Shown: positions 21,001-27,000 of the stretch, one piece after another
Layout of the letters: each line of letters begins with the position of its first letter
Position numbering within the stretch: the stretch's first letter is position 1
NCBI GenBank assembly: GCA_963843555.1
Contig: CAWJKV010000015.1
Location: forward strand, 1 to 64,000
Length of the DNA stretch: 64,000 bases
From: an uncultured Methanosarcinales archaeon
GTDB lineage: Archaea; Halobacteriota; Methanosarcinia; Methanotrichales; Methanotrichaceae
Reading direction: 5' to 3'
Made by a program: the position numbers

Positions 21001-24000
21001 GAATCAATAAACGTGACCTCAGGGCCGCAGCATATCGCTATTCTTCGCGCGGGAGATGTTTCTCTGCTGCAATTCAATATCACCGCTGAGAAGAGCGCCC
21101 GGGGCGAATTTGAGCTTCCTCTCCACATCGAATTCATGCGGCAGGTAGATGTGAGCGTGAGCAATGGAACGGTCTCGCCCCTCTATCAATCGCTCAATCA
21201 GAGCTTCAACCTCAAAGTATCTGTGGCGGGAGATGAGGAGCCATTACGCATCTTATCGATCAGGTCCGAACTCTTGAGAGGAGGATCAGGGACCCTGAGT
21301 CTGGTGATCGAGAATAATGGGGCTGAAGACTTTGAAAACTGTTCTGTCGGACTCTTGGCTGCGCCTCCTTTCCATGTCGAAAGCCCGGATATCTTAATGG
21401 GAGACCTATCGACTGGCTCTATGGCTCTGGCCAGCTTCACCGTTGCCGTGGATGCAAACGCCAGCTTGCAGGATTATCAATTGGGCTGCCTGATTCGATC
21501 TGGCGAAAAAAGTGTGGAACTCGCCATACCGTTGACCCTGACCGGATCCGGCTATTTCTCCGGCCCGCCCAGCTGTGTTGCTATTCGGAGGCTTGATTTT
21601 CGCCTCCCTGGCAGCCTTTCTCCTCCTCAAAAATTATGAGCATCTTTATCGGCGCAAAGGAAGACGTCTCAGGTTGCAGCAATTCTGGCAAAGAGATAAA
21701 GGAAGATCGCGATAATGATAGAAAAATCGGTCGTAGCTTATGGGATCTGCAAGAGATATAAGAGATTCTTTGGGGCCGGCGCCACTGTCCTTAAGAATAT
21801 ATCTCTGGATATAGAAGTTGGAGAGATATTTGGCTTGCTGGGCCCCAACGGTTCCGGCAAGACCACGCTCATCTCCATATTTTCCACTCTGATATACCCG
21901 GAAGAGGGCAGTCTGTCCATCCTGGGCCTCGATGCACGCCGCGACCGGGGAGAGATACGCAAGATAATAAACATCAGTACTGCCAAGCCCAACTTCCCCT
22001 GGAGCCTGACAGTGCGGGAGAATCTGCGCCACTACGGCATGCTCTATGGTTTGTACGGCTCCGGCCTCTCCCGGACGGTTGAGGACCAGATAGATGCCTT
22101 TGAACTGGGCGAGTTTCGGGACATGAAGTTTGAGGATCTATCCACAGGCATAAAGCAGAGGCTCTCTCTGGCAAAGGCCATGCTCAACCGTCCTCGTCTG
22201 CTCTTCTTAGACGAGCCCACAACCGGCCTAGACCCTGACATATCCATAAGAACCAGGGCATTGATTCGGAGAATTCACGAAGAAGAGAACGTAGGCGTGG
22301 TCTTATCCACGCATTATATGCCCGAGGCGGAGATGCTCTGCGATAGGATTGCATTCTTAAGAAAGGGTGAAATCGTGGCTCTGGATACGCCCCAAAATCT
22401 GAAGAACCATCTCGGTTTGGGAGAAAGGGTTGTGGTAACCTACTCCGGCCAGGCGGATATCGAGGCTCTTGAGAATCTGCCGGAGGTCATCGGGCTCAAA
22501 TCCAAGGCCGGCAGGGTGGAGATAGTGATCGATAGGAGAGAGGATAGCGTGGATCGGATCGTCAAGCTCTTTCAAGGGGCCTCGATCCTGGATATAAACA
22601 TAGAAGAGCCGGATTTGGAGGATGTCTTTATTGAACTGGCAAGGTGAATTGAATAAGTATCTGGCGTCGGCCTACAAGAACTGGATAATCTCCAAGAGGA
22701 ATATATTCACCATCTTTGAGCTCTTCTTCTGGCCCATGATCAGCTTGCTCTCCATCGGTCTGCTCACGCGATTCCTGAAGTTGGACGAGTCGATGATCTC
22801 TTTTCTGCTGGTGGGTTCCATCGCCCTTACCATTCTGCAGGTAGCCCAGATCGATGTGGCCTATGTTCTTCTGTTCGATATGTGGTCCAAGAGCATCAAG
22901 AACACCTTCATTGCCCCCGTGCATAGTTACCATCTGATCTTTGGAGCTCTGCTCTTTGGCGTCGTCCGGGGAAGCATTGTCTTCGGCATCCTGATAGTCG
23001 TAAGCAGCTACCTCTTTGGCTTCGACTTCCTGGCAGGCGGCCTCCTGCCGGTGCTGATATTTCTGGCAGGAGTTTTTGCCATGGCTGCGATTATAGGCAT
23101 CACTGTCTGCATATCCATTCTCACCTTCGGCCAGAAGGCGGATGTTGCAGCCTGGAGCCTGAGCGGATTGATACTGCTCGTCAGCGGGATCTACTATCCA
23201 GTGGATGTGTTGCCTCTCTTGCTTCAGAAGGCGGCCTGGGCCATCCCGCTGACTTACTTCCTGGAATACTACAGGACAATATTTATTCCCGGCCCGCACC
23301 ATCTGGTTACGGGAACAATTCTGGCCGCGTTCTACCTCATACTGGGGCTGATCCTCTTCGATCGAGCCATAGATAGGGCCAGGAGGACGGGCATTTTGCT
23401 GCGTCTGTCGGAATAGTCATCAGGATTCTTTGCAGAAGGTATGAGCACATGAATTTTGGGTGTTGGGCTTGATAGAAGGTATGGTGGGAAAGGTCCGTGT
23501 GGGAGACGATCAGCCTGTGCGGCTGATGAGCGTTATCAACCTCAGCCGGGAGTCTTTCTACAAGGGTTCTGTGGCCGGCCCGGATGAGGTTCTTTCCATG
23601 GCCATGGATCTGCAGGAGCAGGGCGCAGATATTATAGATCTGGGGGCAGTCTCCACGGCGCCCGGTTCCCCTCCTGTAAGCGAAGCCGTAGAGAGGGAGC
23701 GGCTCTTTCCCGCCTTAAAAGAGATCCTGGACAACCTGGATATCACCATCTCAGTAGATACGCAAAGGTCAGCTATTGCAGATGATGCTCTGTCCTGCGG
23801 CGCCGACTGCATAAACGATGTATCGGGCCTCTGCGACCCAAAGATGGCGGCAAATGTGGCAAAATGCGATGGCTCTTTGATCATCATGGCCTCAGAGAAA
23901 AGAGCGGGAGATGTCCTCTATCTGAATCAGATAATTCCATTGCTCGGGGAAAGGGTGCGAACTGCAATCCAGGCAGGTGTATCCCCGGCAAAGATCTCTG

Positions 24001-27000
24001 TGGACCCTGGGATCGGCAGATGGATACCAGAGAAGACGGCTGAATATGATCTGGCCCTTCTGGATGGTTTTGAGCGGCTGCGCATTCTGGATAAGCCCGT
24101 GGTCGCAGCTCTGTCACGCAAATCCTTCATTGGAGAGCGTCTCAGACAGCCCGATCCCTTAGAGCGGCTCTCAGGAACTCTGGCGGCCACGGCCATTGCC
24201 GTTTATCTGGGTGCGCATATCGTTAGGACGCATGATATCACCGCCAGCAGGGATACAGTGGCCATGGCAAAGGCCATCAGAGGCCACCCTGCGAAAGTCG
24301 ACGATGAGGATCTAGATGTGGAGGTATTGGGATACCTGGGCCGGGGAGAAGATTTGTTCGAGATTATGCAAAGAACAGAGGTGGATGAGCGGGGATGGGG
24401 CGTGCTCTCCAGGAAAGGATCTTTTCGCGTCCTAATTGTCCGGGGCGTAAGCAGCATGGAAGCCCTGATAATAAAGCAGGAGATGCTGGCACGCGGCGGA
24501 GATGCTGCCATTCCAAAGCTTGCGCTGCGCTGTGACAAGCGGCCGGAAGAGGTTTTAATATTTGGCACCATGGTTCAGATATCCGGCCTCGTGAAGAACC
24601 TGAAAGACCAGCCCTTCCGGCTCTCGCGCCTGGCCAGGTGCATAGATGAAGCAATGGAATCGATCGAAAGCCTTGAACGCTACAGGTGAGTTGGTTGCAG
24701 GTCTTGGGCATTAAGACGGATCTGATAAGACCGGGCGATGACCTGGTGGAGTCGCTTGACAAAGCAATGGCAAAATCAGGCCTGGCCTTCCAGGATGGTG
24801 ATATCCTCGTCGTCTCGGAGAGCACAGTTGCTACGGCCGAAGGGAGAGTTGTGGCTTTGGATGATGTCACTCCCGGTGATAGGGCCCAAACATTGGCTGC
24901 CAGGTACGGCAAAGACCCGCGAGAGATGGAGCTGATACTCAGGGAATCGGACGAGATAGTGGGAGGCATACCGGGCGTGGTTTTGACGCTGAATAAGGGT
25001 TTCCTTTATCCCAATGCCGGGATCGATAACTCTAATGCCCCGGCAGGACATGTTGTGCTGTTTCCGGCCAATGCAGAAAGGTCTGCGCAGCTAATTCGGG
25101 AACGAATGGGGAAGGGCAGGAAGATCGGAGTCATCATCGGAGACAGCAGGACTCATCCCCTGCGGCTGGGGTGCGTGGGAGTGGCACTGGCGTGCGCGGG
25201 CCTGGAGGCAGTTGAGGATGCGCGAGGCCAGAAGGACCTCTTCGGCCGGGAGCTCAAGATCACACGCAAGGCTGTGGCCGATAATCTGGTATCGGCCGCT
25301 CAGATTGTGATGGGCGAAGGCGATGAAGGGATTCCTGCGGCGATAGTAAGAGGTTCGTCCGTTCCCATTCGGGAAGTCAGCGGCGAGATTCCTACCATCC
25401 CGCCCGCGGAATGCATGTACATCGGCGCTCTGGGCTTCGGTCCCCGTCCCTACACAGGAGGATATGACGATCTGATTGAGCAGGCCAGAGGGGCACGAGC
25501 AATGGCCTATGCTCCTTACTCAGGATTCAAGGTGGGGGCTGCGCTTCTCTCCCGAAGTGGTCGGGTCTATTCCGCGGGAAATATTGAGAATGTCTCTTCG
25601 GGGGCAGGCATCTGCGCGGAGAGGGCGGCCATGGCAAAGGCCATCGCATCTGGAGAGAGAGATTTTGAGGCAATAGCTATTGTCGGCGAGACCATTGAGC
25701 CCATAACACCATGCGGCATATGCCGGCAGAGCCTGATAGAGTGCGGGGAGGATATTCTGGTCATCATGGCCAATGTCAAGGGTGAGGCAATAACCGCGTC
25801 GATTAATGATCTTCTGCCCAGAGCCTTCACTTCCCGGTGCCTAAAATAAACTATTATTAAAATATTACTATTATAATCATTGCTTTTAAAAATGTGATAG
25901 AAAAGATGTCCGGCATTCCGGGCATCTCTTATTCGGCCTCGCCTACCAGATCCTTGCCAGGTTCCTTGCGCTCCACAGTGTCGAGCTTGCACTCAATTGG
26001 GGTGCAGACCAGAACATCCTGGGATTGGAATTTGGTGTACGGGTTCTCGGGTATGGTCGTGTCCAGGCCCATGGAGGCGGCCATCATCTCAACAATATCC
26101 ACCATCTTTATGGGGGATTGAGCGGCATTACGACCGTCGATCAGATTCAGCCTGCAGAACGGACAGGTGGAACAGATTACCTCTGCCTGAACATCCGTTG
26201 CATCCTGAACTCTGGCCTTGGCGCAATCCAGAGCCAGGTCGGGAATTCCTGCCTTCACACCGCCGCCAGCTCCGCAGCACCTTTGCAGAGCCCTGTTTCT
26301 CACCATCTCCTGGAACTTGACGCCAGGGATGGACTGAACGCATTCCCTGGGTGCCTCAAAGGCCCAATCTTTTCCCTTGAGGTGCATGAGATGCCGTCCA
26401 TTGTGGCAGGGGTCGTGGTAAGTGAACCTGTAGTTGAGAGGTATCTTGTACTTAACCTCGCCATTCTTTATTTTATCTCTCAGGAATACGGAGAGAGGCA
26501 TAGTCTCATAGGGGATGTAGCCCTCGTACCACATGGGCCAATCGATGGCTGCATTCCTGAGGCAGCCGGCGCAGGCGAATAGCACGTTCTTTGCTCCGGC
26601 GTCCTTCAGGGCATCGATATTGTGCACAGCATGCTCGGCCATGACCTCACGCTGGCCGGTTCTGATCAGAGCCGAAGCACAGCACCATTCATCCTTGCCC
26701 AGCATGGCGAAGGGCACGCCAAGATTATCCAGAATCCTCACAGTGGCGACGCCCAGTGCTTGCTGTCGGTATGCTGCAGTGCAGCCTGCGAAGTATACTA
26801 TATCTCCCGACTCTTGCACCTTGATATCTTTTGGAACCCAGCTCAGCCTCTCATCTTGCTTGGCCTGGTAGGGATTTCTATCTCCCTTGATGAGCTTGGG
26901 GAAGAAGGACTGTTTTCCCACGGGTCCATCGCCGCGCTTTACCAGGTTGGGCCGCATGGCCTCCCAGAGCTCTACGGTCTTGATTCCTGCTTCGCAGACC

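Follow-up and report, generated by a model that had tools for sequence, protein, structure and literature searches.

What does a second CofE-family ligase do when it lies directly behind folP and carries a cytidine deaminase domain? This arrangement was found in the genome of an uncultured Methanotrichaceae archaeon (GCA_963843555.1) on contig CAWJKV010000015.1, of which the first 64,000 nucleotides were analyzed (the window). The two genes and their domains are located as follows:

23460..24689, + strand: folP, 409 aa, start GTG; dihydropteroate synthase (DHPS) with a C-terminal reductase-like (Prd) domain
23523..24275, + strand: DHPS domain of FolP, residues 22-272 (TIGR01496)
24291..24686, + strand: Prd-like domain of FolP, residues 278-409; homology to the haloarchaeal linker and the Sulfurovum extension
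24686..24689, + strand: GTGA, 4-base overlap of the folP stop and the cofE2 start
24686..25849, + strand: cofE2-deaminase fusion gene, 387 aa
24686..25435, + strand: ligase domain of CofE2, residues 1-250; putative gamma-glutamyl ligase acting on pteroate/folate
25466..25834, + strand: tetrameric-type cytidine deaminase domain, residues 261-383 (TIGR01354)

A preliminary description of the locus had set its start at 23484, which is a later ATG; folP begins with the GTG at 23460. Its view of the downstream gene as a second CofE-family protein fused to a cytidine deaminase was borne out, PF01996 (residues 8-223) and TIGR01354 both matching the same 387-aa frame. The GTGA overlap suggests translational coupling of the two genes, and promoter and terminator counts were at shuffle level. 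An mfnF-like gene is located 8.5 kb downstream of the locus.

Among 61 Methanotrichaceae genomes the fusion lies in one open frame in 51 and is split in place in 4; in 3 it is cut by a contig end and in 3 it was not found. The split genes are interrupted within the ligase domain rather than where the two domains join (three were aligned whole, the fourth by its first piece). folP had been described as immediately upstream in all cases. This is correct for 35 of 36 full-length loci, in which the genes overlap or are at most 32 bases apart, but in the remaining locus 759 bases containing a vapC gene are inserted between them, and in two more genomes of the same genus the gap is ~600-800 bases.

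FolP reaches 202.3 bits with TIGR01496 (cut 162.6), and PDB matches to DHPS end at residue 275. The following ~130 C-terminal residues, overlooked in the preliminary description, are similar to the part of FolP that forms dihydropteroate reductase (Prd) in haloarchaea and Campylobacterota. Against 4960 ORFs a profile of this tail detected the N-terminal extension of Sulfurovum FolP (residues 5-119, E 3e-19) and the linker in 9 of 12 haloarchaeal FolC-linker-FolP fusions (best E 2e-18), with no further match in that set, and HHalign supports the homology at 98.9%; the references were haloarchaeal and Sulfurovum proteins. The domain gave no Pfam or NCBIfam match, a homologue search with it returned close relatives only, its single-sequence fold has a pLDDT of 54, and Atlas leads were below 0.9.

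The Prd dihydropteroate reductase is described in PMC1971073 and the domain order FolC-Prd-FolP in PMC3403918. Like the Prd/DHFR2 of H. pylori FolP and of haloarchaeal FolC-Prd-FolP, the homologous domain here is attached to DHPS in genomes without a FolA match: FolA was over its cut-off in none of 5 genomes, and a DHFR-like match in one genome was below the cut-off. The arrangement differs in that the domain is C-terminal to DHPS here and N-terminal in Sulfurovum and haloarchaea, and in that the partner ligase has the CofE fold, whereas in haloarchaeal FolC-Prd-FolP it is FolC. The Prd domain is absent from Methanomicrobiales-type FolPs and from 3 class genomes, for whose reductase the Prd model gives no explanation.

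The reported lack of FolC holds in the class sample, folC being over the cut-off in 0 of 151 class genomes with control matches in 11 of 14. Weak folC matches in 11 of the 151 (20-28 bits, far below the cut) were excluded. We then compared the presence of CofE2, called at a best E ≤1e-50 within a gap from 7e-54 to 9e-47, with that of FolP and FolC in a phylum sample of 301 genomes. CofE2 occurs in 114 of 117 genomes with FolP and without FolC, in none of 51 with both, and in 2 of 133 without FolP, counts that include related, non-independent genomes. In the 3 genomes with FolP that have neither FolC nor CofE2, folP adjoins a beta-RFAP-synthase-family gene. When only genomes with both coordinates listed are considered, cofE2 directly adjoins folP in 41 of 45 from other classes, and the two genes are no more than 20 kb apart in 33 of 39 class members outside the family. 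Clusters of the types purN-glyA-folD-folP-metV-metF-(thiC-like)-cofE2 and glyA-folD-folP-cofE2 are conserved in several classes, and gcvT/gcvH lie upstream in several Asgard-type and thaumarchaeal cases. One 555-aa protein on a single contig (P0136) fuses CofE2 to DHPS; it stays a singleton, since a search for longer fusions gave 8 proteins, none with DHPS. Among 20 further CofE2-bearing genomes folC was found in none and folP in 15, leaving 5 without a folP match.

The phylum-wide presence and absence, the operons, P0136 and the loss of the F420 pocket described below all support the paralog as the candidate for folate glutamylation, as had been proposed. The scope of that proposal was too narrow in one respect: the deaminase fusion is specific to the family, but the ligase also occurs outside Methanosarcinales. 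We consider it highly probable that the folP-CofE2 unit makes tetrahydrofolate without FolA or FolC and leaves the F420 task to the other cofE. The DHPS domain, by its family membership, would join pterin diphosphate to p-aminobenzoate. The Prd-like domain, with flavin, would reduce dihydropteroate to tetrahydropteroate, an activity suggested by the homology and by the H. pylori and haloarchaeal precedent. The presence of this domain on FolP, which would cover the missing FolA as well, makes tetrahydropteroate the likely substrate of CofE2. With GTP and a divalent metal, CofE2 would convert the carboxylate of the pteroate to an acyl phosphate and couple L-glutamate to it, giving tetrahydrofolate. 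CofE2 probably also extends a short gamma-glutamyl tail. The product would feed GlyA, FolD, PurN and PurH, the genes of which were all found in this genome, and the F420 ligase task would stay with the cofE beside cofC.

According to the supplement of PMC1971073, archaeal folate synthesis is an open problem in which a reductase is expected but not identified. The locus offers testable candidates for both missing folate steps in methanogens important to anaerobic digestion, and one of these, Methanosarcina, has genetics.

Could CofE2 instead be a second F420 ligase, for example lengthening the glutamate tail of F420, with a merely historical link to folP? The fusion passes the F420-ligase model TIGR01916 (215.9, cut 180.65), and its fold matches that of A. 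fulgidus CofE (PDB 2PHN, 7ULD) with a TM of 0.80. With PRK13293 it remains below the cut (210.5, cut 274), a canonical paralog scoring 371. Fold and core are shared: D114, N117, D153 and E211 of CofE2 correspond to D109, N112, D150 and E208 of A. fulgidus CofE, which we take to be the GTP/metal core residues. The F420 pocket of that enzyme comprises F92, G153-C155 and R234 (PMC10861534, section 8), and these positions are G97, T156-H157-P158 and I238 in CofE2; S40-T41, K45 and E197 are replaced as well. As bacterial F420-type rows lack F92 as well and some family CofEs carry Met in place of R234, G153-R154 is the firmest pocket marker. CofE2 further differs from A. fulgidus CofE in being linked to folP rather than cofC and in not grouping with the F420 ligases in the tree.

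The other cofE had been reported to lie by cofC. It does precede cofC on contig C18; in this assembly, however, each of the two genes carries a frameshift, which had been left unstated. A broken canonical cofE would favor an F420 role for CofE2; however, cofC, folD and mptN are broken too, and these breaks therefore point to assembly indels. In Methanomicrobiales-type loci (26, not all independent) cofC lies convergent just downstream of cofE2, in two loci the cofE copies are only two genes apart, and cofD exceeds its cut-off in 14 of the 20 additional genomes. Against this, cofC is on the opposite strand there and on the same strand as the canonical cofE in family loci, and 4 of the 20 genomes have CofE2 without a cofD match, one of them with folP-Prd-cofE2 adjacent. 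CofE2 is moreover absent from 131 of 133 FolP-less and from all 51 FolC genomes, canonical CofE being present in nearly all. Taken with the replaced pocket, this makes a second F420 ligase very improbable.

As a proposed folate ligase, CofE2 has a bacterial counterpart in FolC2 of Chlamydia trachomatis (CT611; COG1478; TIGR04132), which complements E. coli folC (PMC1971073). Both are CofE-fold proteins encoded beside folP in genomes without folC, and in an alignment of 221 columns CofE2 and a member of TIGR04132 are 33% identical. By its score CofE2 is nevertheless not a member of TIGR04132 (111.4 bits, cut 350), in agreement with the earlier remark that it scores higher with CofE models (TIGR01916, 215.9). 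CT611 itself was not found in the scan of named genomes, and the FolC2 side of our alignment consists of metagenome stand-ins (of 28 scanned, 6 exceed the TIGR04132 cut; one more protein scores 359.8). FolC2-like proteins and CofE2 share T11, L100, L/F107, P109, Y245 and the lack of Lys 50, Glu 200 and Arg 238 against the F420 ligases; Arg 238 is present in 0 of 20 on their side and in 22 of 27 of F420 type. These 8 positions lie outside the motif by which the FolC2-like proteins were selected, and similarity at residues 153-162, which arises by construction, was excluded from the argument. The FolC2-like proteins differ by ~20 missing residues around 62-80 and by Asp at 243, where CofE2 has Cys. 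Chlamydia has FolA, whereas the CofE2 archaea apparently use Prd, and CofE2, unlike FolC2, coexists with a true F420 ligase and carries the deaminase fusion. In quick trees a branch with an SH-aLRT of 100 has all F420-type ligases on one side and CofE2 on the other. In these unrooted trees the FolC2-like rows, on a long branch, fall among the CofE2 rows, a CofE2 group held together apart from FolC2 is not rejected (p-AU 0.136), and common descent of CofE2 and FolC2 apart from F420 ligases is not established by the tree.

Methanomicrobiales have amino-acid-extended pterins, and instead of folate FolP and CofE2 might make or modify a non-standard pterin or another C1 carrier, such as a methanopterin-type or tatiopterin-type molecule or the glutamate tail of methanofuran. 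The loop-2 position is Ala in non-halophile FolPs and Arg in haloarchaeal and Sulfurovum FolP. Since FolPs adjoining RFAP synthase carry the same Ala, a modified pterin is possible, and the mfnF-like gene in the window would fit as well. The neighbors of CofE2 are, however, folate-specific (FolD, PurN, PurH, MetF/MetV, 5-formyl-THF cyclo-ligase, GcvT), and it is precisely the three genomes with RFAP-linked folP that lack CofE2. A DHPS-like protein distinct from FolP (TIGR00284) is encoded in 5 of 5 genomes and MptN in this one, and by family assignment these would cover the methanopterin side. The supplement of PMC1971073 ties MJ0107-type FolP2, not FolP, to methanopterin. A non-folate product is accordingly quite improbable. 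Glutamylation of sarcinapterin by CofE2 was set aside in view of the MptN gene. A point against the folate reading is that 5 of 5 genomes encode a ThyA-type synthase and none of them ThyX; should ThyA depend on folate, the recycling of dihydrofolate would lack an explanation.

The role of the deaminase domain is a separate matter. The fusion scores 122.5 bits with TIGR01354 (cut 113.65), and the three Cys ligands, catalytic Glu, Arg, Asn-x-Glu and C-terminal Phe are invariant in 36 of 36 fusions, as in the homotetrameric enzymes (B. subtilis Cdd, PDB 1JTK). It differs from these in being fused behind a ligase, in the altered Tyr48 position, and in that searches of the family and genome found no nucleoside-salvage partners. 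The domain is probably an active zinc deaminase acting outside folate synthesis. Its restriction to Methanotrichaceae, as stated previously, was confirmed (tetrameric deaminase in 70 of 74 family and 0 of 76 other class genomes), and the ancestor of the family would have acquired it, probably from a bacterium, by fusion to the operon's last gene. The chances are about even that it is simply a cytidine-type enzyme riding on this operon.

The domain is conserved within the family, and its 5' pocket is remodelled. The Tyr48 position is never Tyr in the 36 fusions (Ser in 30, non-aromatic in 35, one His) but Tyr or Phe in 88 of 95 lower-ranked short homologs. In CDA_F14 Tyr48 touches the ribose, and T51G confers weak CMP activity (PMC9897663); among the 36 fusions, 16 have Gly at the Thr51 position. 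Thymidine kinase was not found in 31 family genomes, nor a real UPRTase in 5. In this genome the PRK-family match is a phosphoribulokinase, the phosphorylase-family match is MTAP-type and the top PfkB match is hexose-kinase-type, so uridine would have no evident onward route. A shift from free cytidine to a 5'-substituted substrate (CMP, dCMP or a related nucleotide) is the main alternative to a cytidine-type enzyme, though less likely. Asp at the Thr51 position in 11 of 36 fusions would repel phosphate, wild-type enzymes of this deaminase family refuse CMP (PMC9897663), a separate dCMP-deaminase-like gene is already present, and there are weaker PfkB matches beyond the top one, all of which speak against such a shift.

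The deaminase could also act with the ligase in folate or pterin metabolism, for example on a pterin or aminopyrimidine that is damaged or incorrect. This would agree with the retention of the fusion in 16 genera, where it is under purifying selection with a median dN/dS of 0.157, and no unfused intact copy stands out within the family. We regard such a function as unlikely: all other CofE2 lineages do without the deaminase, which is found in 0 of 76 class genomes outside the family, the Asn-x-Glu that binds ribose and the Phe that stacks on the base are invariant, and to our knowledge no folate step is a deamination.

In its widest form the proposal would make FolP(-Prd) plus CofE2 the main, so far undescribed tetrahydrofolate route of non-haloarchaeal archaea (Methanosarcinales, Methanomicrobiales, Asgard, Thaumarchaeota, Bathyarchaeota), folate ligation the ancestral role of the CofE fold, with F420 ligases and chlamydial FolC2 both derived from it, and the fused deaminase a CMP-type enzyme. 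This combination is doubtful, and reviews, primary papers or the SEED subsystem may already mention archaeal FolC2/DHFR2. The CofE2 subfamily itself is widespread in archaea and would be misnamed: it passes TIGR01916 and is labelled F420 ligase, so that F420 would seem present where only folate is made.

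The folP-CofE2 locus, in which the gene for dihydropteroate synthase (DHPS, FolP) precedes that of the CofE paralog CofE2, is real and conserved. It is listed here with the canonical F420 ligase gene cofE and its neighbor cofC on contig C18 of the same genome.

23460-24689, + strand: folP (409 aa), above the TIGR01496 cut-off
24686-25849, + strand: CofE2-deaminase fusion gene (387 aa), overlapping folP by GTGA
Residues 8-223 of the fusion: CofE domain (PF01996)
Residues 261-383 of the fusion: tetrameric-type cytidine deaminase domain (TIGR01354, above cut-off)
C18:95744-97173 and C18:97670-98000 (L002): canonical cofE and cofC, frameshifted

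Of the curated models, the fusion protein passed TIGR01916, failed PRK13293 and scored 111 against a cut-off of 350 for TIGR04132, the model of Chlamydia CT611-type ligases (FolC2). Its close named homologs belong to Methanothrix and Methanotrichaceae. The reported occurrence of the fusion throughout this family was confirmed: it is a single open frame in 51 of 61 genomes, the others being split within the ligase domain (4), truncated by contig ends (3) or without a detected fusion (3). The preliminary description had also placed folP directly upstream in every case, which holds for 35 of 36 full-length loci (distance of at most 32 bases) but not for all. In one genus vapC and a small partner are inserted between folP and the fusion (L045:3635-4254). 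The deaminase fusion is indeed family-specific, with matches of the deaminase model in 70/74 family genomes and 0/76 other genomes of the class Methanosarcinia; two CofE copies occur in nearly all genomes of the class. The fusion gene faces a convergent HdrD/HdrE-like pair (window 25929-28053, - strand), and 7-9 kb downstream of it lie one gene of F420-dehydrogenase beta type and one that is mfnF-like (window 33165-35303). On C18, the canonical cofE and its neighbor cofC are frameshifted in this assembly, as are folD and mptN elsewhere in the genome; we infer assembly indels. The same contig carries, 1.2 kb beyond the frameshifted pair, a partial and decayed copy of cofE.

Most likely, the locus provides the last steps of folate synthesis independently of FolA and FolC. 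FolP, by its family membership, would catalyze the DHPS step, and a C-terminal domain homologous to dihydropteroate reductase (Prd) would reduce the product. Judging from its conserved core and gene context, CofE2 very probably glutamylates tetrahydropteroate with GTP and extends the tail. The absence of folC noted earlier extends to the class (above cut-off in 0 of 151 genomes), and FolA reached its cut-off in none of five genomes tested. The window's genome carries glyA, folD, purN and a purH-like gene; metF and metV gave no tblastn match in this genome, which is 82% complete.

One set of 301 genomes of the phylum Halobacteriota was searched for CofE2, FolP and FolC, CofE2 being called at a best E-value of ≤1e-50, at a gap in the score distribution. 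CofE2 was present in 114/117 genomes with FolP and no FolC, in 0/51 genomes with FolC and in 2/133 genomes lacking FolP; related genomes are not independent in these counts, the pattern nonetheless recurring across many families. In one of the two genomes with CofE2 only, glyA-folD still adjoins cofE2. The three FolP genomes lacking both folC and cofE2 have a classical-type folP that overlaps or adjoins a beta-RFAP-synthase-family gene (L135:2712-4525, L136:6321-8154, L137:7491-9288), likely a modified-pterin route. Twenty further CofE2-bearing genomes of unspecified completeness, from Asgard groups, Thaumarchaeota, Bathyarchaeota, Aenigmatarchaeota and others (one, by its title, from the same phylum), contained folC in no case and folP in 15; cofD was above cut-off in 14 and without any match in four.

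With regard to other pterin roles, a ThyA-type synthase was detected in 5/5 genomes and ThyX in 0/5. One reservation is that FolPs of non-halophiles, also where they adjoin RFAP synthase, carry Ala in place of the loop-2 Arg, a residue with a role in p-aminobenzoate binding. The window's genome has an MptN gene, and a TIGR00284 DHPS-like protein occurs in 5/5 genomes, a type tied to methanopterin in the supplement excerpt of PMC1971073.

The Prd-like domain of FolP had been overlooked in the preliminary description. Residues 278-409 match no Pfam or NCBIfam model and align with the N-terminal extension of Sulfurovum FolP at 26% identity. A profile built from 63 distinct FolP tails and searched against 4960 ORFs retrieved this extension with an E-value of 3e-19 and, at best 2e-18, the linker in 9 out of 12 FolC-linker-FolP fusions of haloarchaea; none of the other ORFs matched, and profile-profile comparison gave 98.9%. 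Linker and extension are reported by Levin et al. to be the reductase. A FolC-linker-FolP fusion is named FolC-Prd-FolP in the excerpt of PMC3403918, and a dihydropteroate reductase that depends on flavin and is fused to DHPS is described in that of PMC1971073. Among the 148 listed genomes of the class, the FolP match reaches at least residue 392 in 142 and ends at 275 in three, all of one small family. Methanomicrobiales-type FolP is short and lacks Prd (L105-L117, e.g. L115:7237-8043), and ThyX is absent in the one Methanomicrobiales-type genome class tested; the reductase serving folate in these genomes is a newly noticed gap. In two genomes of one small genus, folP without Prd is interrupted by TAG at a similar place (L085:7587-8390, L086:2382-3185), representing either a pseudogene or amber read-through.

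Gene context outside the family was analyzed likewise. In Methanosarcinaceae-type genomes the unfused ortholog closes the order purN-glyA-folD-folP-metV-metF-(thiC-like)-cofE2, with frequent inserts. Where both coordinates were listed, folP and cofE2 are at most 20 kb apart in 33/39 non-family class genomes and adjacent in 41/45 genomes of other classes; among named loci the distance is ≤5 kb in 47 of 80. The order glyA-folD-folP-cofE2 is found in named Methanoculleus, Methanoregula, Methanolinea and Methanospirillum loci, and gcvT and gcvH lie upstream in several Asgard-type and thaumarchaeal loci. However, 26 Methanomicrobiales-type loci speak against a folate ligase: in these, cofE2 is followed downstream by a convergent cofC. 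A 555-aa CofE2-DHPS fusion (P0136), with the ligase N-terminal and no Prd, is a singleton on one 4.4-kb contig. Many Methanosarcinales folate clusters contain a ThiC paralog between metF and cofE2 (L071:8117-9388, L070:7632-8879), which is above the PRK13352 cut-off and matches BzaB more weakly. In Methanosarcinaceae-type genomes, canonical cofE abuts an opposite-strand dCMP-deaminase-like gene (L087, L088, L097, L098; e.g. L097:6908-7378).

A CofE2 model based on 20 sequences (pLDDT 85) superimposed on A. fulgidus CofE with a TM-score of 0.80. Residues D114, N117, D153 and E211 are common to CofE2 and canonical CofE (85 versus 12 sequences). In contrast, the deazaflavin pocket, taken from the excerpt of PMC10861534, differs between A. 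fulgidus CofE and CofE2 (F92 to G97, G153-R154 to T156-H157, R234 to I238), with further changes from S40-T41 to E45-S46, K45 to T50 and E197 to N200. Precedent for a folate-ligase role is CT611/FolC2 (PMC1971073 with its supplement, and PMC4161248). Our literature search, with key reviews outside its scope, found no such assignment for a methanogen gene, nor did the excerpts of PMC8498797, PMC5041015, PMC8305020 and PMC13408713 contain one. As FolC2 stand-ins served 68 metagenome loci retrieved by a sequence motif, of which 28 were scanned and 7 passed the TIGR04132 cut-off; one protein (438 bits) is encoded after folKP and a gene resembling DHFR. We compared 20 FolC2-like, 47 CofE2 and 27 F420-type rows at positions outside the motif used for selection. 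Unlike the F420-type, FolC2-like proteins and CofE2 have in common T11, L100, L/F107, P109 and Y245 and the lack of Lys50, Glu200 and Arg238. Quick-method trees (94 and 44 rows) set F420-type ligases and FolC2-like proteins each apart by a branch of support 100, with CofE2 in between. By these trees, CofE2 of the family did not arise as a recent copy of the family's cofE. Since CofE2 constrained as one group was not rejected (p-AU 0.136), descent of FolC2 from within CofE2 does not follow.

Residues C310, E312, R313, C343, C346, N299, E301, F281 and F381 of the deaminase domain are invariant in 36/36 fusions. Among 630 pairs, the 39 whose dS was usable gave a median dN/dS of 0.157 (deaminase) and 0.107 (ligase). 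Thymidine kinase went undetected in 31 family genomes, as did a real UPRTase in five genomes, and the matches named in the window's genome include no uridine kinase or phosphorylase. The domain is thus kept and probably an active enzyme, and the ligase elsewhere works without it. Its closest named stand-alone homologs, from Bacillota, Chloroflexota and Verrucomicrobiota, suggest a bacterial donor. That it is a passenger cytidine deaminase has about an even chance. The position of Tyr48 (cytidine deaminase numbering) is Tyr in none of the 36 fusions and Tyr or Phe in 88/95 lower-ranked homologs; that of Thr51 is Gly in 16/36 and Asp in 11/36. According to the excerpt of PMC9897663, Tyr48 lies at the ribose and T51G confers weak CMP activity. 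A CMP-type enzyme is a less probable alternative to the passenger cytidine deaminase, and a link of the deaminase to folate is improbable. About 12 family genomes carry a second deaminase fusion (L034:4044-5201, L035:3998-5152, L036:4415-5569, L037:4447-5640), with a start resembling a signal peptide, then a family-3 solute-binding domain and then a cytidine-deaminase domain that has none of the three zinc Cys and no catalytic Glu; the protein may be a sensor or receptor that binds nucleosides.
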